This document shows positions 1-37,657 of a DNA stretch of 64,000 bases, piece by piece. Origin of the DNA: Candidatus Nomurabacteria bacterium (GTDB lineage Bacteria > Patescibacteriota > Minisyncoccia > Phycocordibacterales > SBAW01). A program made the translations under genes and the position numbers. The notes beneath the pieces were generated by a model. The model did no database searches. It was given only the letters and a program-made list of their open reading frames with translations, and had not been told where the DNA came from. Each line of letters opens with the position of its first letter. Positions within the stretch are counted from its first letter, which is position 1. Location: NCBI GenBank assembly GCA_943349945.1, contig CALQZS010000001.1, positions 213,739-277,738 of the forward strand, written 5' to 3'.

Positions 1-1175
1 ATAACCGGCGTATCTGCCTCCATAGCACTTAGGCGCTTGTTGACCTCCTTTACCGTCGAGGCTACCACCCCTTTGCGTTCGTCGTTTATCGCATTGAGCA
101 CGCGCGCATGCTCTTTTGCCTCCTCTGTTGTTTGACTGCGCAGCAGCATGGCGGCAGTTTCGGGCGAGCCCATGCGCGACGCAGCGTTGATGCGCGGCGC
201 TATCATAAACCCAATATCATCTTCGGTCAGTGTGTGCGGCTTGATGCGCAACAACGCCAAGAGCGCGGCCAAGCCGGGGCGACGGTTGCGGCGCATCACA
301 AGTAGCCCATAGCGAGCGAGCATCCTATTTTCCCCCACCAAGGGAACCATGTCGGACATGGTGCCAAGCCCCACCAAGTCGAGCAGCCATTTTTCCTTGC
401 CTACAATGTATGTACCTGCCGTGCCTGTGGCGCGCATCTTTTGCAGCACCCCTTGGACCAACTTCCACGCCACCCCTGCCCCACAGAGCCCGTCGAAGGG
501 GTATGCGCTGTCGGGGCGTTTGGGATTTATTACTGCAAAAGCAGGCGGAAGATCTGGTACAAGTTGAAGATCTGGCGTAGGCGGAAGGTTATGAGTAATA
601 TCCTCCGCAACAACTTCCCCCACAAAAGTCCTCGGGTCTCCCTCGACCGTCTTCGGACGGTCTTCGGGCCAGACTGTTTGCGTTGGAAGTTGTTGCTTCG
701 TACCGACCAAGTGGTGATCGGTCACGATGACATCTATCCCCTGCTCGTTTGCAAACGCAATAGAGTCGTACTCGGTGGTGCCCAAGTCGACCGTCATCAC
801 CAAAGTGACCCCTTCTTCTTTAAGCTCGGCGAGGCCGCCCACATTGAGCCCGTACCCTTCTTTGTGGCGGTGCGGTATGTAGTGCCGGACAGAGAGCCCC
901 ACGTCGCGCAAAAATTCTGTAAGCAACACACCACCGGGGATACCGTCGCAGTCGTAGTCGCTCCACACCGCCACCTTTTCGCCCTGTGCTTTGGCATGCA
1001 AAATACGGTCGACCGCCTTTTCCATATCAGGCAACAAAAATGGGTCGTGACTGTCGCGGTCGAAGTCGGGCTCCAAAAAACGAGCAATGGCCTCGTCGTC
1101 GGTAATACCGCGAGCGTGGAGCAGGTCGGGAATTAAGTCTTCGTGCGCTCGCTCCCGTACGCGGTATTTTTTCAT
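1..1175 (-). CDS. recJ: Single-stranded-DNA-specific exonuclease RecJ (N-terminal part; gene continues past window start)
   Basis: Own translation of minus strand from ATG (complement of 1173-1175): MKKYRVRERAHEDL...; DHH-family motifs SDYDCDGI and VIVTDHH. Not in the ORF track because it is truncated at the window edge. Confidence 0.7.
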   Translation of the reverse strand, partial: MKKYRVRERAHEDLIPDLLHARGITDDEAIARFLEPDFDRDSHDPFLLPDMEKAVDRILHAKAQGEKVAVWSDYDCDGIPGGVLLTEFLRDVGLSVRHYIPHRHKEGYGLNVGGLAELKEEGVTLVMTVDLGTTEYDSIAFANEQGIDVIVTDHHLVGTKQQLPTQTVWPEDRPKTVEGDPRTFVGEVVAEDITHNLPPTPDLQLVPDLPPAFAVINPKRPDSAYPFDGLCGAGVAWKLVQGVLQKMRATGTAGTYIVGKEKWLLDLVGLGTMSDMVPLVGENRMLARYGLLVMRRNRRPGLAALLALLRIKPHTLTEDDIGFMIAPRINAASRMGSPETAAMLLRSQTTEEAKEHARVLNAINDERKGVVASTVKEVNKRLSAMEADTPV

Positions 1176-1217
1176 CAAATTTAGTATACTAAAGGCTAGC
1201 GACATATGTAAAAAAAA

Positions 1218-1550
1218 ATGGAAAGCTGTATTTTTTGTAAAATAGCGGCTGGAGAAATACCCGCCGACAAAGTATACGAAGACGACATGGTCGTCGCCTT
1301 TTTGGACATCAACCCCAAAGCGCCTGGCCACACCCTGCTTATACCAAAAGCCCACCATCAATGGTTCCAAGATTTGCCCGACGATATATACACCGACCTC
1401 TTTCGTACTGCCAAAAAAATAGCGCAGGATATAAAAATTAAAAACGACGCCGACTATGTACGGCTTGGTATTGTGGGCACCGACGTACCACACACGCACA
1501 TACACCTTGTGCCACAAAAGTTGAGCGACAAAAAAGTCCAAGGACTTTAG
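1218..1550 (+). CDS. HIT-family (histidine triad) nucleotide hydrolase
   Basis: 110 aa; histidine triad HTHIHLV near C-terminus; N-terminal CxxC (CIFCKI) typical of HINT proteins. Confidence 0.85.
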   Translation: MESCIFCKIAAGEIPADKVYEDDMVVAFLDINPKAPGHTLLIPKAHHQWFQDLPDDIYTDLFRTAKKIAQDIKIKNDADYVRLGIVGTDVPHTHIHLVPQKLSDKKVQGL

Positions 1551-2629
1551 TTTTTGAGCACCTCAAGCGCAGGCAAGGTACCGTCGGCCAAAAACTGGAG
1601 CATCGCTCCGCCGCCGGTCGAGACAAACACACGCTCTGCATCAAACTGCATACCCGAAAGTGCAGCGGCAGTATCTCCCCCGCCCACCACCGCTTTGGCC
1701 GTACCGTCGACAAGCGCCTGCGCAAGCAAGCGGGTACCGTCGACAAACCCCTCTTCATAAATCCCTAGAGGACCATTCCACAATACAAATGGTGCTTCTT
1801 TTGTTTTTTGCGCCCACGCAAGTGCTGTGGTTGGGCCTACATCCACCGCGCGCTCGTTGATGCGTATATCGTTGACCAAGGTACTGCGCTCGGCCTTGTG
1901 TGCCACATCGCTCACAATTAAATCAGTAGGCAGTGTGATGCGCTGGTCTGCCGCCAACTCTGTGGGCACCGCATTGTCCGAGACAAAGGACCCGCCCACA
2001 GGGAAGCCGCGAGCCTTGAGCATGTCGTTGGCCAAAGCGCCACCCAGCAACAATTCTCCGTACACAGCCATCAATTTAGTAAACAAGGGTATTTTTGTTT
2101 CAAATTTTGCACCCCCAACCACCGCAATAGCGCCCTGCGGCGGCGTGAGCGCCTGGGTTAGGTGAGCCACTTCGTCGAGCAGTCGCAAGCCAGCGGCGCT
2201 GGGCAAAAGTGTAGGCAACAACACCATAGACGCATGTGCGCGGTGCGAGTTGGCGAAGGCGTCGTTTATATATACGTCGCCCTGTGCAGCAAGCTCTTGT
2301 GCAAAGGCTAGGTCGTTTGCCTCTTCGCGCGGGTCAAAACGCAAGTTCTCGAGCATCTCTATGTTGGGAGACGATACTAGCTCGCGCAAACGCGCCAACA
2401 CCGGCGCCACACGCAAAGAGTCGTCTGCGCCGCTTGGCCTACCCACGTGGGTAAGCACGATAATTTTTGCAGCACCGCGCTCTAGCAAAAGTTGCACCGT
2501 GGGCACCACGGCCTTGATGCGCGCATCGTCTACCACTTTGCCTCCAGCTAGCGGCACATTGCAGTCGGCACGAAGCAGCACCCGCTTACCCGAAACGTCC
2601 ACATCAACAACACTTTTTATTTCTTGCAT
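1547..2629 (-). CDS. pgk: Phosphoglycerate kinase
   Basis: 360 aa; N-term MQEIKSVVDVDVSGKRVLLRADCNVPL matches the PGK signature; overlaps tpiA stop by 13 nt (operon). Confidence 0.9.
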   Translation of the reverse strand: MQEIKSVVDVDVSGKRVLLRADCNVPLAGGKVVDDARIKAVVPTVQLLLERGAAKIIVLTHVGRPSGADDSLRVAPVLARLRELVSSPNIEMLENLRFDPREEANDLAFAQELAAQGDVYINDAFANSHRAHASMVLLPTLLPSAAGLRLLDEVAHLTQALTPPQGAIAVVGGAKFETKIPLFTKLMAVYGELLLGGALANDMLKARGFPVGGSFVSDNAVPTELAADQRITLPTDLIVSDVAHKAERSTLVNDIRINERAVDVGPTTALAWAQKTKEAPFVLWNGPLGIYEEGFVDGTRLLAQALVDGTAKAVVGGGDTAAALSGMQFDAERVFVSTGGGAMLQFLADGTLPALEVLKN

Positions 2630-3372
2630 ATACGCATCAATTCTATGAATGAAGTAACTTCTGTACTCGCCCGCCCCACCAAAAATCCGGAAATATCTCC
2701 CTCGGCAAGCAGCCCCGGCGCATTATGCGCATCCACCGAGCCGCCATAGAGTATCGGTATTTTGATGCCCACCGCACGCCCCAAGAGGTCTGCAAGAGTT
2801 TTGCGTATAAAAATTACCATTTCGCGCAACTCGGCAGGAGGCAATGCTTCGGACGCATCTTTGCCAATAGCCCATACGGGTTCGTAAGCCACCACAACCT
2901 TGGCTGCAGCGGGTTTGCCATTTGCGCCCATAAGCGCCTGCGCAAGTTGCCCCGCCACCACAGAAAAATGGGCACCCGACGGGTCGCGCTCTGTTTCGCC
3001 CACACACAAGACCACCATAAGCCCAGCATTGTGTGCTGCGGCAACCTGCGCCGGCACTAGCGCACCTTCGGTAGCGCGGCGCTCTGAGTGGCCCACAATA
3101 ACCCAAGCAGCCCCTGCAGCCTTGAGCATCACCGCGGAAACCTCGCCGGTATGTTGTGCATCATCAAAAGGCGACACGGTTTGCCCGGCAATTTTTATGC
3201 GGCTCCCCGCAGCGGCTGCAAGCGTCGGCAGGAGCGTAAACGACGGCGCAAGCACTACATCAACGCCAGAGATATTTTGCGCCTTGCGTTTACATGCCGC
3301 TATAAAACGCTTCGCTTCCTCTGGCTTCTCGATATACATCTTCCAGTTACCCACGAGCAACTTCTTTTTCAT
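2617..3372 (-). CDS. tpiA: Triosephosphate isomerase
   Basis: 251 aa; GNWKM N-terminal motif, VAYEPVWAIG active-site region. Confidence 0.9.
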   Translation of the reverse strand: MKKKLLVGNWKMYIEKPEEAKRFIAACKRKAQNISGVDVVLAPSFTLLPTLAAAAGSRIKIAGQTVSPFDDAQHTGEVSAVMLKAAGAAWVIVGHSERRATEGALVPAQVAAAHNAGLMVVLCVGETERDPSGAHFSVVAGQLAQALMGANGKPAAAKVVVAYEPVWAIGKDASEALPPAELREMVIFIRKTLADLLGRAVGIKIPILYGGSVDAHNAPGLLAEGDISGFLVGRASTEVTSFIELMRICKK

Positions 3373-3390
3373 GTAGCAACTATACCGTCT

Positions 3391-5136
3391 CTAGTCCTGT
3401 CCTGCCACTTTGAGCACCTCGTCTATACTGGTTAAGCCTTGCGCAGCCTTGACCACCCCATCCCCCACCAGCGAAAATAGCCCGGACTCTTTTGCTGCCT
3501 CTTGGAAAAGCGCTGCATCAGCTTCGCGCAAGATAAGCTCCTTGAGCACAGCGGAAGTTGGCCACACTTCTTGTAGCCCCAGCGCGCCGCTGTAGCCGCC
3601 TTTGCACTGACCACATGATTTTGCAGTAAAAAACGCGACATCCTTCCATAGTGCTTGGCTGTCGATTTTGTTTTCTGATTTTAAAATAGCGAGCACCTGG
3701 CCCAAGTCGGCATGCGTACTTATTGCATCCATTTGTGCGCGGCCCAGCCTGTGTTGTTCGTTGTTTGGGCAAAGTTTGGGCACCACCGCGGTACCCACAA
3801 CGCAGCGTAGCGCAGAGGCAAGCAACAGCGGCGGCACACCAAGCGTCAACAAACGCTCCAAACCTGCAGCAGCAGACGACGCCTCTATTGCCGCCAACAC
3901 CAGCACACCACGATTTGCCGCCTCGGCGGCAAGCAGCGCCGTGTCGGCATCGTGCAAGTTGGAAACCATCACCACGTCCGGGTCTTGGCGCAGCGCCGCG
4001 CGCAACGCCACCCCAAATGTAAGCCCCATCTCAGGCGCAACAGCTGTTTGTGTTACAAAGGGAAGATACATCTCTATAGGGTCTTCCACTGAGGCAATAC
4101 TTGCCCCGCGGCCGCCAAGCATGTCGAGCAGCGTGTACAACAAGGTGGTTTTGCCCGACTGCCGCTGGCCCGCCACCAACACCAACCCAGACTTAAGCGA
4201 CAGCGCTTGGTGCAACTCGTCGCGTGCTTGCGTGTGGAGCCCTAGCGACTCCAACGTAAAGCCCCGACGACCTCCCTGCTCGGACACCAGCTGCAACACC
4301 ACCTTTTCCCCCGAGGCACCGCCGACCACAACAGGCACCGTGGAGACACGTACCGAAACCTCTGCATCGCCCACCGCTACGCGGAACCTCCCCTCTTGAG
4401 GCAGTGTTGTGCTGAGCGACAACTGGGCCAGCTGTTTGAGCCGCGCCGCAATGCCCGCAAATGCGGCCTTGGGTAATTGCATAGCATCATAGAGCGTCGT
4501 CCCTATCCGGTAACGAAGTAGGAGCCCTTGTTCGCGCGGCTCTAGGTGGACGGCGCTCGCGCCTTGGTATAGCGCGTGGCCAATAAGCGCATCCACCGCG
4601 GAGCGAGTATGCAGACGCTCGGCAAGCACGCCAGGCGTCGCTGCGTCAGCCGCCACAGCGGCTGCATCACGGGCAATATGTGCGCCAAACTGTTCTTTGA
4701 GGTGCCGCTGGTAGTGCAAAAGCGCGCGGGTCATAGACTCGCGGTCGGTCAGGCGAGGCGCGATTTTGTATTTTGTATGTAAATGCAGCTGTTCGAGCGC
4801 AGACAAGTCGGCAATATCAAGCAGCGCCACCTCAAGCACCTCGCCGCGAAGCGCCAAGGCAACCAAACTGTGCCTCCGGGCAAGTGGCTCGGGCACCATA
4901 GCCAGGGCATCGTGCGCAATTTCGTTTGGAGTAAAGCGCACAAAGGGTAGTCCGAGACCACGCGCCATCGCGCGCCGCACCTCATCCTCGCCCAGCGCAC
5001 CCGTCTCGACCAGCACCCGCGAGAGCGGTGTGCCCGACGTCTCTGCTAGCCGCAGTGCAGCATCCAACTGCGAGCGAGACAGCAGCCCCGCGTCGAGTAA
5101 AAAATCTCGCAACCGCTCTTCTTCTGCGTACATCAC
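3391..5136 (-). CDS. GspE/PilB-family type II/IV secretion ATPase homologue with degenerate catalytic motifs
   Basis: 581 aa; GspII_E N-domain; Walker A GQRQSGKTT; Asp box VEDPIE; Walker B region LRQDPDVVMVSNLHD (canonical DPDVIMVGEIRD; catalytic Glu replaced by Asn); His box replaced (LVLAAIEAS instead of LVLSTLHTN); only partial tetracysteine (CGQC retained). Confidence 0.75.
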   Translation of the reverse strand: MMYAEEERLRDFLLDAGLLSRSQLDAALRLAETSGTPLSRVLVETGALGEDEVRRAMARGLGLPFVRFTPNEIAHDALAMVPEPLARRHSLVALALRGEVLEVALLDIADLSALEQLHLHTKYKIAPRLTDRESMTRALLHYQRHLKEQFGAHIARDAAAVAADAATPGVLAERLHTRSAVDALIGHALYQGASAVHLEPREQGLLLRYRIGTTLYDAMQLPKAAFAGIAARLKQLAQLSLSTTLPQEGRFRVAVGDAEVSVRVSTVPVVVGGASGEKVVLQLVSEQGGRRGFTLESLGLHTQARDELHQALSLKSGLVLVAGQRQSGKTTLLYTLLDMLGGRGASIASVEDPIEMYLPFVTQTAVAPEMGLTFGVALRAALRQDPDVVMVSNLHDADTALLAAEAANRGVLVLAAIEASSAAAGLERLLTLGVPPLLLASALRCVVGTAVVPKLCPNNEQHRLGRAQMDAISTHADLGQVLAILKSENKIDSQALWKDVAFFTAKSCGQCKGGYSGALGLQEVWPTSAVLKELILREADAALFQEAAKESGLFSLVGDGVVKAAQGLTSIDEVLKVAGQD

Positions 5137-5180: not shown

Positions 5181-7649
5181 CTACTGTTCGATATAACTTG
5201 GAAGCAAGTTCACCACTGCGCTTGCAGAGTTAGACCCGTAGGCATTGGTACAGGTGAGGGTGAAGGTAGTCTGCGCATCCAGGGGACCAGAGTCTACATC
5301 AGCGCCAGAGAGTGCCGTACTAGAGAATCCGTTTTGTCCGGTTACGGAACATGAGATTGCGTCGGTAGTAGACCAGTCGAGTTTGGTGGACGTATCTTTA
5401 CGCACACGCGTTGGGTCGGCACTAAGAGAAATAGTTGGCAAACATTGCGTGTCTGATGGTGCTGCGACACTACAGGAGCCGTTGCACATCACCGTACCAG
5501 AACTTGTTTGGCCACAGACGTTTGCGCCGGAAGTGCATGAGTTGCCGTAGGTGGCAGGCACAGGTGGCACCGTTGCCGAGCAATTGCAGCCCGAGTCGTA
5601 AGTACCAGTGGCATAGTTGCAGGCATTTGAAACACTACAAGCAGCTCCAACGGTGCAGGCTGCCGTCACATTCACATCGGTCCATCCACCACAGTTGTTT
5701 GCTTCGTTTGACTCGGCAATGACACCTACGGTGTCGCCGCTATAGGATTTGTCGGCACAGACGCGGATGCCGTAGGTGCCAGCTGCAGGGAAGGTGTAGG
5801 ACTGGGTAGCTATGCCACTACCCCACGCAGTCAAGGCAGACATGTTGGAAGCAGCTAGGTCGGTGATGACCTCTGCAGCGTGGGCGATGTTAAAGAGTTT
5901 GGTAAAGATGTTATGTGGAGCAGTGGCTGTGGTGTTGCTGCGTACTTGGTAGAAGTTTTGGAAGCCAATGTTGGTAGAGCCACCTCCTGTGTTGGTGACT
6001 GTGGCAGAGAAGGTGGTGGGGGTGCCTGCAACTGCACTAGTAGGGGTGATGCCCGAGACCGTGAGGTCTGGGGTACCTCCACAAGAAAAAACAGGTGTAT
6101 TACCAGAAACATTCCAGTTTACAGGGTCCCCGGGGTGCACCCACGCGCTATACAAAGCGTTTGGGGTGGTGGGTACAGTTATGGATGTGCCAGAGTAGTT
6201 GTCTATATAGCAAACACGGGGATCCGCACTCCATGACGTCCATCCGCTTGCGCAGCTCTCTGTAGTTGGTCTGTAGTAGCGTGGATAGAATTTGGTAGCA
6301 CCAGCTGGCGTTGACCATGAAAGGACTGCGGATGTTCCTCCAGCGTTACAAGAGGCGGTCATTGTAGGGGCTGTGAGTGCCGTACAAGAAAACGATGACA
6401 TGTTTGCTGTCCAATTTACTGTACCGCCTACATTAGTGTGCACCCAAGTAGAATAGGTAACACCAGGAGTGATGCCCGAAAGGTAAGCGTAGGTTTCTGC
6501 AATATTATCTTTGTAACAACCGTATTCCCAATGTGTCCACCCAGCAGGACACGAAGAAAGGTTAGCGCTTACTCGCGGATAATAGGTAGCGCCAGAGACA
6601 GGGCTCCATGAGAGCGTAACGCCAGTACCACTTCCATCACACGCCGCATACACTGATGGATTACCAGCTGCTGGCGGCGCACATGCGCCATCCCCTGCGC
6701 GCAAGTACTGGTACTGTACTGGGCTGGTGTTGCTGTACTGCCACCATTGCCAGTTGTTGCCGTTGGGGTCGCTGCCGCCAGTACAGTAAGGGGTCCAGGT
6801 TATTGCAACCGGAGCTGGTACAACGTAGTACGTACGCTGACTCAATGGTGTACCCCAACTTGCACCATCATATCCAGATACAGAGAATATATATTCTCCT
6901 ATTGGCAAGTTGTACACTAAATTACCATTAGAATCTGCGACAGGGCCGTGGATATTTGCCCCTCCTTGCCACCAAGAGGTACCCGCCGCTTGCACAACTG
7001 AATATTGGGCATTTTGTGTACTCCAGCTTACCGTCGCTTGGCAAGTAGTTGCACCCGGAGCAGCGACACAAGGGCTGCTTGGATAGACAGAGAGGTTCCC
7101 GCTTACTTGAGCGGCTGGTTGGTTTGCCGGCGGCGCACAACTGACCGCAGTAAAGGAGTATCGTTCGTATGTATAGCCAGAGTTATTGCCCAATACCCAA
7201 ATCTGGTACCCAGCACCTCCGGTGAGAAGGCTTGAAAAAGACGACGACCCCGAACAAGGTACGCTGGAACCGAGAGATTGTACGAAGTTGCCCCCACCGT
7301 CGTGCAAGTTTATCCGAAGGCTACTGTCGCCGTTACTTTCACAACTAGGTGAATGACCAGATGCCGCTGTTTCGTTCCAAGAAAAAGATAGGTTGTTGCG
7401 CCCAGACCCATCACAACTAGGCCCTAAACTACCAAAACATGCAGCAACCCCCTGCCCTAGGCCAATTTGCTCAGGAGCCAAACTCACCACAGAAGCACGT
7501 TCTGATACAAACGCACCTGCAAAAACTAAACAAAAGGCAACAGTAGCCCCCGCCGCCATAAACTGTGGCTTTTTTATCAAAACAGAGGGGCGTACTATTT
7601 GCAGGAAAACTTTTTTACTGCGCTGCAAATATGTATTAAATTTTGTCAT
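5181..7649 (-). CDS. Large secreted cell-surface protein with FN3-like and CARDB-like Ig-fold repeats; Cys/Trp/Gly/Ser/Thr-rich
   Basis: 822 aa; hydrophobic signal-like segment MAAGATVAFCLVFAGAFV (alternative start at 7559); motifs GVTLSWSPVSGATYYPR (FN3-like), DLTVSGITPTSAVAGTPTTFSATVTNTGGGST (CARDB-like); two tandem ~75-aa internal repeats (YYPRVSANLSSCPAGWTHWEYGCY... / KFYPRYYRPTTESCASGWTSWSADPRVCY...). Ends 4 nt from the upstream TPR gene. Confidence 0.6.
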   Translation of the reverse strand: MTKFNTYLQRSKKVFLQIVRPSVLIKKPQFMAAGATVAFCLVFAGAFVSERASVVSLAPEQIGLGQGVAACFGSLGPSCDGSGRNNLSFSWNETAASGHSPSCESNGDSSLRINLHDGGGNFVQSLGSSVPCSGSSSFSSLLTGGAGYQIWVLGNNSGYTYERYSFTAVSCAPPANQPAAQVSGNLSVYPSSPCVAAPGATTCQATVSWSTQNAQYSVVQAAGTSWWQGGANIHGPVADSNGNLVYNLPIGEYIFSVSGYDGASWGTPLSQRTYYVVPAPVAITWTPYCTGGSDPNGNNWQWWQYSNTSPVQYQYLRAGDGACAPPAAGNPSVYAACDGSGTGVTLSWSPVSGATYYPRVSANLSSCPAGWTHWEYGCYKDNIAETYAYLSGITPGVTYSTWVHTNVGGTVNWTANMSSFSCTALTAPTMTASCNAGGTSAVLSWSTPAGATKFYPRYYRPTTESCASGWTSWSADPRVCYIDNYSGTSITVPTTPNALYSAWVHPGDPVNWNVSGNTPVFSCGGTPDLTVSGITPTSAVAGTPTTFSATVTNTGGGSTNIGFQNFYQVRSNTTATAPHNIFTKLFNIAHAAEVITDLAASNMSALTAWGSGIATQSYTFPAAGTYGIRVCADKSYSGDTVGVIAESNEANNCGGWTDVNVTAACTVGAACSVSNACNYATGTYDSGCNCSATVPPVPATYGNSCTSGANVCGQTSSGTVMCNGSCSVAAPSDTQCLPTISLSADPTRVRKDTSTKLDWSTTDAISCSVTGQNGFSSTALSGADVDSGPLDAQTTFTLTCTNAYGSNSASAVVNLLPSYIEQ

Positions 7650-31300: not shown

Positions 31301-31327
31301 GTGAAATGTATATTGCGAACTATTTTG

Positions 31328-31398
31328 TCGGGGCGCCGAGAATCGGACTCGGTCTACCTGCTCCCAAAGCAGGTGTACTACCGGTATACTACGCCCCG
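31328..31398 (-). tRNA. tRNA-Pro (anticodon UGG), no encoded CCA; missed by and overlapped by spurious ORFs in the track
   Basis: Manual fold: acceptor CGGGGCG/CGCCCCG with the C1:G72 pair typical of bacterial tRNA-Pro; anticodon stem CCTGC/GCAGG with loop TTTGGGA (G37); T-arm CCGAG-TCCGATT-CTCGG. Confidence 0.7.
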
Positions 31399-31442
31399 GG
31401 TCAAAATCACTCTACCACAACTCTGCAAAATCTGCCTGTCCT

Positions 31443-31835: not shown

Positions 31836-32014
31836 GATTCACATGAAACAACTGACAATATGTCACCTTAGAAACAATTTGGCCTATATAATGGCTTAAA
31901 GACTCACTATCGATCATCTCAAGGATATGTCCTTAATACACATTTCCCCAGAGTTATCCACAGAAATAGGGGATTAGTGCCATTTATCAACATTTCTATT
32001 GCCCGCCTTTGAGA

Positions 32015-32220
32015 CTGTCCTTTTGGGCGGGTAGGGAGGGGAATCGGTCACAGACAGGGGGGTCTCTAGTTCTGTCCTTACTTTGTGCGGATTAGGGAGG
32101 GAATCGGTCACAAGTTCCCTTCGGGACTCGCGACCCCGCCTCATAGCCGCTAAAGCGGCATATTCCGGCTTTCGATTCTCCACGCAGGCAAAGCAGTTTG
32201 CCTGCTCTGTCCTTACTTTG
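32015..32220. repeat. Tandem degenerate pseudo-copies of the tRNA-Gly 3' end + 3' flank (three units), the last carrying the ~95-nt conserved structured insert
   Basis: Units ctgtcctt(actt)tgtgcgg-NNN-gggag(g)gaatcggtcac at ~32015, ~32071, ~32207; the same gaatcggtcacaag junction motif also appears at 27098 and 32355. Confidence 0.5.
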
Positions 32221-32291
32221 TGCGGCCAGGGAGAATCGAACTCCCGTCTGCTCCTTGGCAAGGAGCCGTCATACCATTAAACTATGGCCGC
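32221..32291 (-). tRNA. tRNA-Gly (anticodon GCC), no encoded CCA
   Basis: Manual fold: acceptor GCGGCCA/TGGCCGC, anticodon stem GCTCC/GGAGC with loop TTGCCAA, T-arm GGGAG-TTCGATT-CTCCC. Confidence 0.8.
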
Positions 32292-32525
32292 TTTCTTCTT
32301 ACGTTCGATACTATAGCACAAAAAATTAAATTCGGTCAGGATTCTGCCAGGATTCGGTCACAAGCAACTTTTCGTTCATTTTGCTTTTTTGTGGTCACGA
32401 ATAATTCTTCGCCGTCGCTCAGAATTTTCTCGACCCCGGCTCGCGGTCCTGCTTGCTAGCAGGACATCGCTCCGCCCAGCACAGAAGCACAAAATTCCGC
32501 GCAGGCGGAATGTTTGTACCTTCTG

Positions 32526-32597
32526 TGCTCCCGCCAGGATTCGAACCTGGAACAACTGCTTCGAAGGCAGGCATGATATCCATTTCACTACGGGAGC
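32526..32597 (-). tRNA. tRNA-Arg (anticodon UCG), no encoded CCA
   Basis: Manual fold: acceptor GCTCCCG/CGGGAGC, anticodon loop CTTCGAA (one mismatch at the base of the anticodon stem), T-arm CCAGG-TTCGAAT-CCTGG. Confidence 0.6.
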
Positions 32598-32638: not shown

Positions 32639-34111
32639 ATGCAACTGTCCCCAAGCCAAATACCTCCAGAGGTTTCACGAATAACCAAAACCTTCGAAAA
32701 CGCGGGTTTTGAAGCCTGGATAGTGGGTGGATGTGTGCGTGATTTGCTGCTTGGTCGCAAGCCAAAAGACTGGGACGTAGCCACCAACGCCACACCCGAA
32801 CAGATCCAAGGATTGTTCGAAAACACCTTTTATACCAACGAATTTGGCACGGTCGGCATAGTTAACGAAGACGTGGAAGACGAGAGTCTCAAAGTGGTCG
32901 AGGCAACTCCATACCGCGTAGAAGGGAAGTATAGCGACGCGCGCCGCCCAGACAGCGTTATTTTTAGCCAAAAAATAGAGGACGACCTTAAGCGCCGCGA
33001 CTTTACCATCAATGCTCTTGCCTACAACACCGCAGGGGAGCTTATAGACCTTTATGGCGGCATACAAGACATTGATGCAGGGCTTATACGTGCCGTAGGG
33101 GACCCGATTGACCGCTTCGAGGAAGATGCGCTGCGTATTTTGCGGGCAGTACGCATTTCGGCAGAGCTTAATTTCGCCATAGAAGCCTCTACAAAGACTG
33201 CGATGCAGCAGTGTGCTACCCAGCTCGGAAAGATATCAAAAGAACGCGTACGCGATGAATTTGTGCGAATCATAGGCTCTACACAACCCATGGCAGCCTT
33301 AGTACTTGCCCGAGAGTTGGGTATTTTGCAATATATGGCGCCCGACATAGAGCAGGGGATTGGTGTTGAACAAAATCAGGCACACAGCTTTGACGTATTC
33401 GAGCATAACCTGCGCTCGCTCCAGCATGCTGCCGACAAAGGTTGGGACTTTGATATACGGCTTGCAGCCCTGTTTCACGACGTAGGCAAGCCTGCCAGCC
33501 GTCGCTGGTCAGACGAAAAACGCGACTGGACGTTCCACGGCCACGACGTTATTGGGGCCCGGATGGCCAAAAAAGCCTTAGGAGACCTTAAATTTTCACG
33601 TGAAACAGTAGAAAAGGCCACAAAAATGGTGCGCTGGCACATGTTTTTCTCCGACCCAGACAAAGTCACTCTTTCTGCGGTGCGGCGCATTATAGCCAAC
33701 GTAGGACGCGAAAATATAGAGGATTTGGTGAAACTGCGTATTTGTGACCGCATAGGCACCGGCCGCCCCAAAGAGCAGCCATTCCGCCTGCGCAAATACC
33801 AAGCGATGATAGACCAGGCACTGCGCGACCCAATTTCTGTAGCTATGCTCAAAATAGACGGCAAGCGTTTGATGGAAGTAACAGGCGAGAAACCAGGCCC
33901 ACGCTTGGGCTGGTTGTTGCACGCACTTTTGGAAGAAGTATTGGACGATCCAGCACGCAACACAGAAGAATATTTAGATACAAAAGCAAAAGAGCTTGCA
34001 GCGCTCTCGGATGCCGACCTGCAATCTAAAGGACAAGAGGCGAAAGAGAAGAAAGAGCAAGCAGAGCAAGCTGATTTGGACGAAATCAACAAAAAGTATT
34101 TCGTAAATTAA
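32639..34111 (+). CDS. cca: CCA-adding tRNA nucleotidyltransferase with C-terminal HD domain
   Basis: 490 aa; Pol-beta NTase head GGCVRDLLLG...DWD; HD motif LFHDVGKP; sits directly beside the CCA-less tRNA cluster. Confidence 0.85.
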   Translation: MQLSPSQIPPEVSRITKTFENAGFEAWIVGGCVRDLLLGRKPKDWDVATNATPEQIQGLFENTFYTNEFGTVGIVNEDVEDESLKVVEATPYRVEGKYSDARRPDSVIFSQKIEDDLKRRDFTINALAYNTAGELIDLYGGIQDIDAGLIRAVGDPIDRFEEDALRILRAVRISAELNFAIEASTKTAMQQCATQLGKISKERVRDEFVRIIGSTQPMAALVLARELGILQYMAPDIEQGIGVEQNQAHSFDVFEHNLRSLQHAADKGWDFDIRLAALFHDVGKPASRRWSDEKRDWTFHGHDVIGARMAKKALGDLKFSRETVEKATKMVRWHMFFSDPDKVTLSAVRRIIANVGRENIEDLVKLRICDRIGTGRPKEQPFRLRKYQAMIDQALRDPISVAMLKIDGKRLMEVTGEKPGPRLGWLLHALLEEVLDDPARNTEEYLDTKAKELAALSDADLQSKGQEAKEKKEQAEQADLDEINKKYFVN

Positions 34112-36736: not shown

Positions 36737-37657
36737 TTATTTTCGGCGTTTACCATGAAAGGCTTTGTGGACTTCGTGCAAATGCTTGTCGGTGATGTGG
36801 GTGTACACCTGGGTAGTCGCGATGTTGGAGTGGCCAAGGAGTGCCTGCACCGAGCGCAGATCGGCACCGTTTTCCAAAAGGTCAGTTGCAAAGGAGTGGC
36901 GGATGACGTGCGGCGTGACTTTGCGGGTAATGCCCGCCTTGGTGGCATATTTTTTAACCAAACGCTCGACTGAACGGGGAGTGAGCCGCCCGCCTGAGGG
37001 GGATTTTTCTTTGCTTCCTAAATTGCGGCTCATCTGCACAAACAGCGCGTCATCTATGTCGCCTCGTTTGTCTAAGTACTCTTTTATACAGCGCTTGGCA
37101 GCAGGGGAGAGAAAGACCACACGTACTTTTTCGCCCTTTCCGCGCACCGAAAATTCGTCACGAGAGAGATCTAAGTCGCGGTTGAGGCCGCACAGTTCCG
37201 AGACACGCAGACCCGTAGAAAAAAACAGCTCCAGTATCGCCCTGTCGCGCAAGTCGCTGAGCGACGAACCTTTTGGCCCTTCCATCAAACGCTCCAGCTC
37301 GCCCGCGGTAATAAGGTCGAGGTCGCGTGCGCCAACCTTTGCCAATTCGATACGCTCGGGGTTAAGCGACTCGATACCGCGCTTGCGCAAAAACTTCAAA
37401 AACGCGCGCAGCGAGATCATGTAGTAGTTTTGGGTCTTGTGCTTCATTGTGCCACTCGTGCCTGGCTGGCGGTTGAGGTGCAAACGGAATTCGCGCACCG
37501 TGCGCTCATCGAGCTTGGCAGGGGAGGTGAGTTTAGTGTGGGCCAAAAAACGCGAAAGGTAGCGGTCGTAATTTTCGACTGTTTTAATACTGCGACCTTT
37601 CTCTATCTCTAAGTATTCGAGAAATTCGGTTTTGAGGCTTTTAAGGTCCTGTGCCAT
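36737..37657 (-). CDS. Tyrosine site-specific recombinase XerC/XerD
   Basis: Start MAQDLKSLKTEFLEYLE (ATG at 37657); catalytic region HVIRHSFAT...LLGHSNIATTQVYTH. Confidence 0.85.
   Translation of the reverse strand: MAQDLKSLKTEFLEYLEIEKGRSIKTVENYDRYLSRFLAHTKLTSPAKLDERTVREFRLHLNRQPGTSGTMKHKTQNYYMISLRAFLKFLRKRGIESLNPERIELAKVGARDLDLITAGELERLMEGPKGSSLSDLRDRAILELFFSTGLRVSELCGLNRDLDLSRDEFSVRGKGEKVRVVFLSPAAKRCIKEYLDKRGDIDDALFVQMSRNLGSKEKSPSGGRLTPRSVERLVKKYATKAGITRKVTPHVIRHSFATDLLENGADLRSVQALLGHSNIATTQVYTHITDKHLHEVHKAFHGKRRK

Follow-up and report, generated by a model that had tools for sequence, protein, structure and literature searches.

A probable accretion array of gene-less integrative mini-elements with a structured RNA module behind tRNA-Gly in a Candidatus Nomurabacteria genome

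The CcrAB large serine recombinases insert the staphylococcal cassette chromosome SCCmec at the 3' end of a conserved gene, which results in direct repeats of ~15 bp and in tandem composite arrays; the members that lack a recombinase, namely, the psi-SCC cassettes and the cis-mobilizable elements (CIMEs) of streptococcal ICEs (elements both integrative and conjugative), are thought to be mobilised in trans. The targets of SCC and CIME are rlmH or a protein-coding gene, not tRNAs, and the cassettes span kilobases and contain neither a structured RNA module nor a segment antisense to the target. That mobile elements integrate at tRNA genes is itself textbook knowledge: for example, tycheposons and other tRNA-targeting islands integrate at tRNA genes and are flanked by the full tRNA gene and a partial copy of it (Hackl et al., 10.1101/2020.12.28.424599). 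Here we analyse a stretch of 64,000 nucleotides (hereinafter, the window) from a Candidatus Nomurabacteria bacterium (Patescibacteriota; assembly GCA_943349945.1, contig CALQZS010000001.1), in which positions 32015-32220, adjacent to tRNA-Gly(GCC), appear to form the outer portion of an array that grew by accretion of non-autonomous integrative mini-elements mobilised in trans, a reading to which we assign a probability of about 0.65. The proposed integration logic is that of the tRNA-targeting islands and the SCC and psi-SCC cassettes and, in common with tycheposons, successive integrations at a regenerated site would push the older elements outward, with remnants and partial tRNAs accumulating (10.1101/2020.12.28.424599). 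Tycheposons are kilobase-sized and mostly encode a tyrosine recombinase (10.1101/2020.12.28.424599). The elements described here depart from them, and from textbook tRNA integration, in being gene-less carriers of ~100 nt (40-170 nt), in having a large serine recombinase rather than a tyrosine integrase as the candidate enzyme, and in that every copy carries a well-supported, conserved structured RNA, absent from Rfam 15, with an antisense that makes it partly complementary to its own target.

The features of the array and of its sister copies are all on the minus strand, which is also the sense strand for the tRNAs, and their order is given in the tRNA sense. ARAGORN and Rfam identify four tRNA genes on this strand, Gly-UCC, Pro (31328-31398), Gly-GCC and Arg-UCG. 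Behind tRNA-Gly(GCC), a complete element is followed by an older, deleted copy and by the remnant of a third one, and decaying copies of the last ~20 nt of the tRNA (T-loop C56 to the discriminator) come after each of the first two:

32221..32291, minus strand: intact tRNA-Gly(GCC) without an encoded CCA; forms the tRNA-proximal end of the array and is the presumptive regenerated target (ARAGORN; Rfam, 67.6 bits)
32107..32220, minus strand: E2, complete mini-element, 114 nt, left end CAAAGTAAGGACAGA, right end CTTGTGAC
32184-32205, minus strand: hairpin of E2, with a CUGC loop
32171-32181, minus strand: antisense of E2 to the T loop and T stem, GGAGAATCGAA
32094-32186, minus strand: three-way-junction module of E2 (covariance model R1, see below; 71 bits, E 1e-19)
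32085..32106, minus strand: X2, degenerate copy of the tRNA-Gly 3' end, from C56 to the discriminator plus C, CGATTCCCTCCCTAATCCGCAC
32047..32084, minus strand: E2b, older, internally deleted element copy, 38 nt, ending in CTGTGAC
32026..32046, minus strand: X3, second degenerate copy of the tRNA-Gly 3' end, CGATTCCCCTCCCTACCCGCC, including CTCCCTACCCGC
32015-32025, minus strand: left-end remnant of a third element, its first 11 nt, CAAAAGGACAG

E2b shares its 14-nt left end with E2 and differs in its short middle part; the third remnant is embedded in a hairpin, CCCGCC...GGCGGG (32002-32031), such that the remnant as a feature spans 32002..32025. The original prediction, made from the sequence of the window, had described three tandem degenerate units here as footprints of integration. 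The three units are indeed present, as E2 with X2, E2b with X3 and the third left end, and correspond to whole non-autonomous elements of ~110 nt, not to bare footprints.

Two sister copies are located behind other tRNA genes of the window:

27210..27280, minus strand: tRNA-Gly(UCC), intact (ARAGORN, Rfam)
27101..27209, minus strand: E1, paralogue of E2, right end CTTGTGAC (R1, 64 bits)
27173-27194, minus strand: hairpin of E1
27159-27169, minus strand: antisense segment of E1
27080..27100, minus strand: exact 19-nt copy of the tRNA-Gly(UCC) 3' end (CGATTCTCCCATCCCGCAC), then CA of the ancestral flank
32526..32597, minus strand: tRNA-Arg(UCG), intact (ARAGORN, Rfam)
32357..32525, minus strand: E3, longer relative of E1 and E2 behind tRNA-Arg (R1, 42 bits)
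32346..32356, minus strand: partial 11-nt copy of the T loop and T-stem 3' strand of tRNA-Arg (CGAATCCTGGC)

E1 and E2 are 87-89% identical (89% over 95 nt), with compensatory changes in the left hairpin. The module of E3 spans 32381-32493 and terminates in a first GTGACC (32393-32404), after which comes a second right end, GCTTGTGAC, at 32357-32368, and E3 is probably a composite element. At each locus, the inserted DNA lies between the intact tRNA and a repeat of its 3' segment, exact over 19 nt for E1 and degenerate for E2, E2b and E3. The junction CTTGTGACCGAWTC, which had been predicted to recur beside tRNA-Gly(UCC) and tRNA-Arg, is found there in exact form (27095-27108 and 32351-32364), as well as at 32101-32114, and with 2 mismatches at 32041-32054; at up to 2 mismatches, it has 5 matches in the window vs 0.75 expected, a number that 0 of 100 shuffles reached. 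None of the window copies of E1, E2, E2b and E3 contains an open reading frame (ORF) or a recombinase, and they are therefore non-autonomous.

The homologues of the CCA-adding enzyme of the window (32639-34111, plus strand) bear the names Adlerbacteria and Paceibacteria, and the window is of that type within the Patescibacteria (candidate phyla radiation). Comparison with related genomes (L-numbers hereinafter denote loci or contigs of related species or metagenomes) points to insertion rather than local duplication. In the closest related genome, L006, where the CCA-adding enzyme is 89% identical to that of the window, tRNA-Gly(UCC) is directly followed by the flank that in the window comes after the distal repeat, that is, the site is empty; L006 also lacks E2 and E2b and retains only a 5'-deleted remnant of E3. 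An orthologous copy of E3 is present in L009. The covariance model detects no module in the close relatives L006, L008, L012, L014 and L015. By parsimony, E1 and E2 would thus have been gained in the window lineage. The empty site in L006 reads ...CCCGCACCTATCGAG, so that 'ccttactttg' (CAAAGTAAGG in the tRNA sense), originally taken for the native 3' flank of the tRNA, is really the left end of the inserted element. The encoded CCA that had been noticed behind tRNA-Gly(UCC) is present (27080-27100, CGATTCTCCCATCCCGCACCA), but its CC(A) comes from the ancestral tRNA flank. In L006 (6106-6177), as well as in L011, L016 and L044, tRNA-Gly(GCC) together with its promoter is inverted compared to the window and most relatives, and the region beside the elements has therefore been rearranged repeatedly.

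The elements of the window belong to a much larger family. Across 80 syntenic Paceibacteria loci, about two dozen of the 261 tRNAs (Gly, Arg and Pro) are followed within 600 nt by a copy of their own 3' end; several sequence classes exist among these loci, and the class found in the window is denoted class A. A pattern derived from the class A core was used to search metagenome contigs, where it occurs in at least 120 stretches, so that the counts are lower bounds: there are at least 130 matches, at least 83 of which have a tRNA on the same strand ending no more than 400 nt upstream, with at least 34 anticodons represented; the remainder are mostly located at contig ends or are chance matches in GC-rich coding sequence. 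The tRNA-associated modules are always directly behind the tRNA and in the same orientation. The terminal ..YGTGAC is mostly followed by 18-23 nt that exactly repeat the cognate tRNA, beginning at C56 and running through the discriminator plus 1-5 nt, and this copy contains CCA where the tRNA gene encodes it; overall, the right edge of the repeat ranges from +0 to +5 nt. The original prediction had named simple local duplication of a motif confined to this locus as the alternative; given that the junction ..YGTGAC/CGAWTC (the slash marks the join) and the cognate tRNA 3' copy occur in related genomes and, in the metagenome contigs, behind at least 34 anticodons, local duplication does not account for it. 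Cores behind different tRNAs are 90-96% identical, each combined with the cognate antisense. In L125, four consecutive tRNAs have one module each, and the same cluster in L207 and L208 has none.

A typical element is 100-170 nt long, contains no ORF and consists of a variable left part with a hairpin, a segment antisense to the 3' part of its own tRNA and a core of 65-100 nt that is conserved. Across the family, the left ends show no conservation, and the first hairpin is terminator-like in several members. In most members, the antisense spans 11-12 nt, corresponding to the T loop and T stem, and the longest reach 20 nt (T54 to N73); it is Watson-Crick complementary to the tRNA 3' strand even at the positions of G·U pairs (for example, A opposite U70 of tRNA-Ala); it complements the T loop as well, so that it is not the sense 5' half of a second T arm. 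Where the two copies of the tRNA end differ, the antisense agrees with the tRNA-proximal one. An apparent inverse relation between long antisense segments and decayed distal copies is at least in part an artefact because several long-antisense members have a small extra hairpin after CGA in the distal copy and because the anchored measure of antisense length misses GAUGAGAA variants.

For an unfitted MAFFT alignment of 22 members, RNAalifold predicts a three-way junction in which 18 of the 28 pairs are compensatory. Helix P1 is formed by the antisense and the tRNA-end copy, and is followed by P2 and P3 and by P4, GGUCG.../...UGACC, the last C of which is C56; the last helix of the module ends in ..YGUGAC. 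The covariance model R1, built from this alignment, finds E2, E1 and E3 in the window and a total of 119 copies in 100 loci, with the following counts for the 118 distinct sequences:

Alignment cells in standard base pairs: 92.8%
Pairs in which both sides change: 27 of 28
Shuffles as high as observed: 0 of 500
Pairing when the partners are slid: 45% at most
Near-invariant G·U pair in P4: 108 of 118 sequences

Because this alignment was fitted to the model, these counts lean towards structure; the unfitted RNAalifold result agrees with them. The near-invariant G·U pair assigns the structure to the tRNA-sense strand and hence to RNA. As a structured RNA, the module is real, and it is read in the direction of the tRNA. 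About 25 of its positions are conserved in at least 90% of the sequences, including GAA, GGA/GA and GG in the junctions, and Rfam 15 has no match over the module at permissive thresholds, either in the window (E1 and E2) or in six other module loci (E <= 1 in these six). Our preferred guess as to its role is that it folds in cis so that the antisense pairs with the duplicated tRNA end, which would stop the duplicate from competing with the true 3' end during folding of the pre-tRNA; the RNA module may also serve as an arm site of the recombinase.

A few modules reside outside tRNA loci. On the plus strand of the window, a diverged copy at 19708-19799 (16 bits, E 0.012) retains AGCACGACGGUGCGAGG and UUUUCUAGCAAGAAAA of the family members and is located within the loop of a terminator-like hairpin (AAAAAATACGTCTC...GAGACGTATTTTTT), just past the inorganic pyrophosphatase gene (19167-19697). 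In L191 (547-634), a module follows the terminator hairpin of the gene for ribosomal protein L7/L12, and in L193, a module that lies within ~55 nt of one contig end, at the 3' end of a protein-coding gene, comes with a direct repeat covering 28 nt or more of the gene end.

As for the enzyme, 12 of the 14 distinct large serine recombinases in related contigs abut or overlap the 3' end of a tRNA. The domain composition of those in L144 (4303-5832), L087 and L043, all in relatives of the window, is PF00239, PF07508 and PF13408 (Resolvase, Recombinase and Zn_ribbon_recom). In L144, an exact 21-nt repeat (347-367 and 5818-5838) brackets a unit of 5.47 kb: at one end, a large serine recombinase of 509 aa is encoded at the end of tRNA-Tyr, with its ORF extending 13 nt into the tRNA, and at the far end, there are a hairpin, an antisense, a class A module and a copy of the tRNA-Tyr end. 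L087 has an 8-kb recombinase element with a 16-nt repeat at tRNA-Ser, in a tRNA-proximal position relative to two older class A mini-elements. In L209-L211, the recombinase ORF overlaps the tRNA by 42 nt and, as in L144, ends inside the tRNA fragment. Recombinases sharing 88% identity are located at distinct tRNAs, namely, tRNA-Tyr (L144) and tRNA-Val (L217). A weak resemblance is seen between the left end of E1, E2 and E2b (AAAGTAAGGAC) and those of the serine-recombinase elements (AACAAAGGAC and AAAATAGGAC).

Within the window, the tyrosine recombinase close to the array (36737-37657, 4.5 kb away) was considered as the element gene and rejected: 67 of 80 relatives, with or without elements, have it in syntenic position and with 62-98% identity, and it accordingly represents an Xer-type housekeeping gene. 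In this respect, the earlier statement that no integrase remains nearby is borne out. The proposal that a mobile family with a CTTGTGAC-type end has used these tRNAs repeatedly as attachment sites likewise gains support from the empty site in L006 and the recombinase-carrying relatives; the recombination itself is inferred. The junction was found in related genomes and, in L144, within a unit that also encodes a recombinase; viral contigs provided no support for a phage origin, with 0 matches for the core 22-mer, 1 chance match, in GC-rich coding sequence, for the family pattern, and 0 matches for the L144 recombinase.

Several observations on the recombinase loci can be added. The L144 unit contains nested near-perfect inverted repeats, 546-792/3825-4073 (~250 nt) and 4068-4217/5674-5823 (150 nt), which enclose the cargo and the recombinase gene; the shorter one, of 150 nt, is an inverted duplicate, upstream of the gene, of the last 50 codons of the recombinase, and the cargo includes a protein with Schlafen AlbA_2 and HATPase_c_4 domains. 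When the serine recombinases are compared with the window by tblastn, only their C-terminal ~30 residues find a match, at 31316-31418 on the plus strand, antisense to tRNA-Pro; in other genomes, these tails are encoded across a tRNA-Pro gene. In L212, a local cluster of mobile genes (95-3627) beside a serine-recombinase element at tRNA-Val comprises an IS110-type transposase, a second recombinase fragment and a LAGLIDADG gene.

Under the mechanism we propose, conservative site-specific recombination would join the T loop of the tRNA gene, acting as attB, to the element junction, acting as attP (..GTGAC/CGAWTC plus the tRNA 3' end). The element would supply a replacement 3' end, so that the left junction becomes a complete tRNA gene again and a fresh target; newcomers would insert beside the tRNA and push the older copies outward to decay, which would give the order of E2, then E2b, then the remnant. 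An excised circle would carry the junction ..CTTGTGAC/CGATTCTCCC...GCAC/AAAGTAAGG.., with CGATTC after CTTGTGAC. The recombinase would act in trans, the best candidates being the large serine recombinases that abut tRNA 3' ends in related Patescibacteria. A crossover in the T loop is consistent with the agreement of the antisense with the tRNA-proximal copy, provided that the incoming element carries that copy, with the conserved right end ..GTGAC, and with the recombinase ORFs of L144 and L209-L211 that end inside the tRNA fragment; since the repeats are identical, the position of the crossover is not readable from the sequence. Like miniature inverted-repeat transposable elements (MITEs), the mini-elements are short, gene-less, multi-copy and structured, and would depend on an enzyme supplied in trans. 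Unlike MITEs, they have no conserved terminal inverted repeats, the inverted repeat formed by the antisense and the tRNA end changes with the target and, instead of a duplication of fixed length, the flanking repeat is always the adjacent tRNA 3' end, 18-23 nt from C56.

Several lines of evidence weigh against this scenario. The link to serine recombinases hinges on L144, the sole unit in which a recombinase and a class A module are enclosed within one repeat pair, and this unit may be composite given its internal 150-nt and ~250-nt inverted repeats; no element recombinase, serine recombinases included, is encoded within the 64-kb window. Large serine recombinases normally need identity only over the 2-bp crossover, and repeats of 18-23 bp from the T loop are more typical of tyrosine integrases; the repeats here, at 16-23 nt, are atypical of large serine recombinases with a short, 2-bp crossover. 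X2 and X3 resemble the tRNA-Gly acceptor alleles of other species (TATCCGC, to which X2 is nearer, and TACCCGC) rather than the host allele, TGGCCGC, and might be either fossil alleles or imports. The paralogues E1 and E2 are located at tRNAs whose acceptor 3' strands differ, so that retargeting requires a further step. An empty site could equally result from a precise deletion between the repeats, and hence the direction of change depends on parsimony. Within the species, E1 is not polymorphic, all 8 of 8 population contigs being identical. Finally, the conservation of the module, with its ~25 near-invariant nucleotides, implies a function beyond that of a simple scar.

Some of these observations fit other explanations as well. 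The modules might be host-serving 3' trailers that are co-transcribed with the tRNA and act in its processing, termination or folding, with the tRNA-end copy produced by local duplication and the patchy distribution by frequent precise loss. The RNA-type covariation with its invariant G·U pair, the uniform placement and orientation behind the tRNA, the terminator-like first hairpin of several members, the fixation of E1 in the species and an antisense that stays matched to the functional tRNA copy while the distal one decays are all in line with such a role, and precise loss between direct repeats would mimic empty sites; nevertheless, we regard it as doubtful because most orthologous tRNAs in close relatives have no module, the tandem arrays decay, modules that are 90-96% identical are found behind unrelated tRNAs in different contigs, copies exist at the 3' ends of protein-coding genes (L191, L193 and window 19708-19799), and one copy closes the recombinase-carrying 5.5-kb unit of L144. 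If, instead, the integrative logic is retained but driven by a tyrosine recombinase (the resident Xer-type enzyme, or a classical tRNA-targeting integrase with its gene elsewhere), the serine recombinases would belong to other, unrelated elements. An identity block from the T loop to the tRNA 3' end, which Williams reportedly described in 2002 (as cited in 10.1101/2020.12.28.424599) as the classic signature of tyrosine integrases, is what is observed here, a tyrosine recombinase gene lies 4.5 kb from the array, and the L144 unit may be composite; yet that gene is the syntenic housekeeping one shared by 67 of 80 relatives, the gene tables consulted, in which no dedicated search was made, show no tyrosine recombinase abutting a tRNA vs 12 of 14 serine recombinases, and the left end of E1, E2 and E2b is weakly similar to that of the serine-recombinase elements, all of which makes a tyrosine driver unlikely.

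An RNA-programmed insertion, in which the antisense would recognise the tRNA gene or the tRNA itself and the tRNA-end copy would be a long target-site duplication or be copied in each event, draws on the fact that the antisense is the true Watson-Crick complement of the tRNA 3' strand (including A opposite U70 of tRNA-Ala) and is swapped wholesale between modules that are 90-96% identical, on the 88% identical recombinases at Tyr (L144) and Val (L217), and on a right repeat edge that varies between +0 and +5 nt. There is also some likeness to the bridge (seek) RNAs of IS110/IS1111, that is, a structured, target-complementary RNA at the end of an element and a recombinase that uses a catalytic serine. 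Unlike IS110, the elements have no DEDD-type recombinase, the repeat is 18-23 nt vs 2 nt in IS110/IS1111, and in place of two bipartite guide loops there is a single contiguous antisense of 11-20 nt within helix P1, for which guidance is a proposal made here. We know of no precedent for RNA guidance of Resolvase-family enzymes, the elements encode neither a reverse transcriptase nor a nuclease, the modal antisense of 11-12 nt mostly spans the near-universal T loop and T stem and, with the pairing partner present in cis, a purely structural helix accounts for the complementarity; this explanation thus appears quite improbable. Far less probable still is a self-cleaving ribozyme of the HDV-like or theta type in the tRNA trailer that makes the tRNA 3' end. 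Theta and other HDV-like ribozymes are small structured RNAs known immediately downstream of phage tRNA genes (10.1101/2023.06.13.544163), a weak full-length match to drz-agam-1 is detectable at 32133-32206 (17.6 bits, E = 1), and the ~25 near-invariant nucleotides with the conserved G·U pair would suit a catalytic RNA. However, with a gathering threshold of 37, this score falls far short, no ribozyme match exists in the E1 region and the six other module loci have no Rfam match at E <= 1, there are no hammerhead, twister, hatchet or pistol matches, and the fold supported by covariation is a three-way junction, not a nested double pseudoknot; unlike theta ribozymes, too, the elements here give no hit at the Rfam thresholds and are flanked by a tRNA-end copy. 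A group I intron is known from a tRNA gene of Patescibacteria, inserted in the anticodon loop and interrupting the tRNA (PMC13011429). By contrast, the tRNA beside the elements is uninterrupted and complete, and there is no group I match in Rfam at E <= 10 in the window regions. An intron in the T loop is rejected as well: the upstream tRNA is complete as it stands, the distal copy is in many cases decayed or interrupted and therefore is not a required exon, in the tRNA-Pro short class (see below) it lacks 2-3 nt of the anticodon stem, and no reading register satisfies the splice-site rules of introns of group I or of group II.

If the accretion of trans-mobilised mini-elements is the correct interpretation, it would account for many odd 'partial tRNA' repeats found in Patescibacteria, with their reduced genomes, provide a marker of recent genome flux in organisms thought to be poor in mobile elements, and define a new RNA family for experiment. 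A bolder version, to which we give only a slim chance, is that the RNA module is an active partner in recombination, with the exchangeable antisense picking the tRNA gene for a generic serine recombinase or another host enzyme, such that gene-less carriers of ~110 nt would have spread over most tRNA genes of some Patescibacteria by programmable, RNA-assisted integration; an RNA that helps to choose the target would make this a new kind of programmable integrase system. A published description of such elements was not found in the literature searched, a library that is itself incomplete.

Other classes of repeats have a related organisation. A tRNA-Pro(UGG) class of 45-70 nt (L009, L030, L031, L037, L043, L050 and L062) comprises one covarying hairpin and a 3-4-nt stem complementary to the GGG of the anticodon loop, followed by a copy from the anticodon loop to the tRNA 3' end in which 2-3 nt of the anticodon stem are missing; the tRNA-Pro of the window has no such element. 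Two further classes, represented in L035, L067 and L048 (Gly-UCC) and in L041 and L069 (Arg), have unrelated cores and the same layout, that is, hairpin, antisense to the T arm, structured core and tRNA-end copy; the elements end in ..GGAAAACCGnnGGTTTCCAAGRAGTGAGAYATC in one of these classes and in ..GGGGTACTGAWCCTGTAAGG in the other. In L154, L167, L088, L188 and L203, the module is preceded by tRNA-like 3' ends that ARAGORN does not call, some of which end in ..CTCCAC; the targets in these cases could be intron-containing tRNAs or tmRNA genes. The gene for the CCA-adding enzyme is divergent from the tRNA-Arg/tRNA-Gly cluster, in which no CCA is encoded, and this divergent order is syntenic in 80 related genomes.

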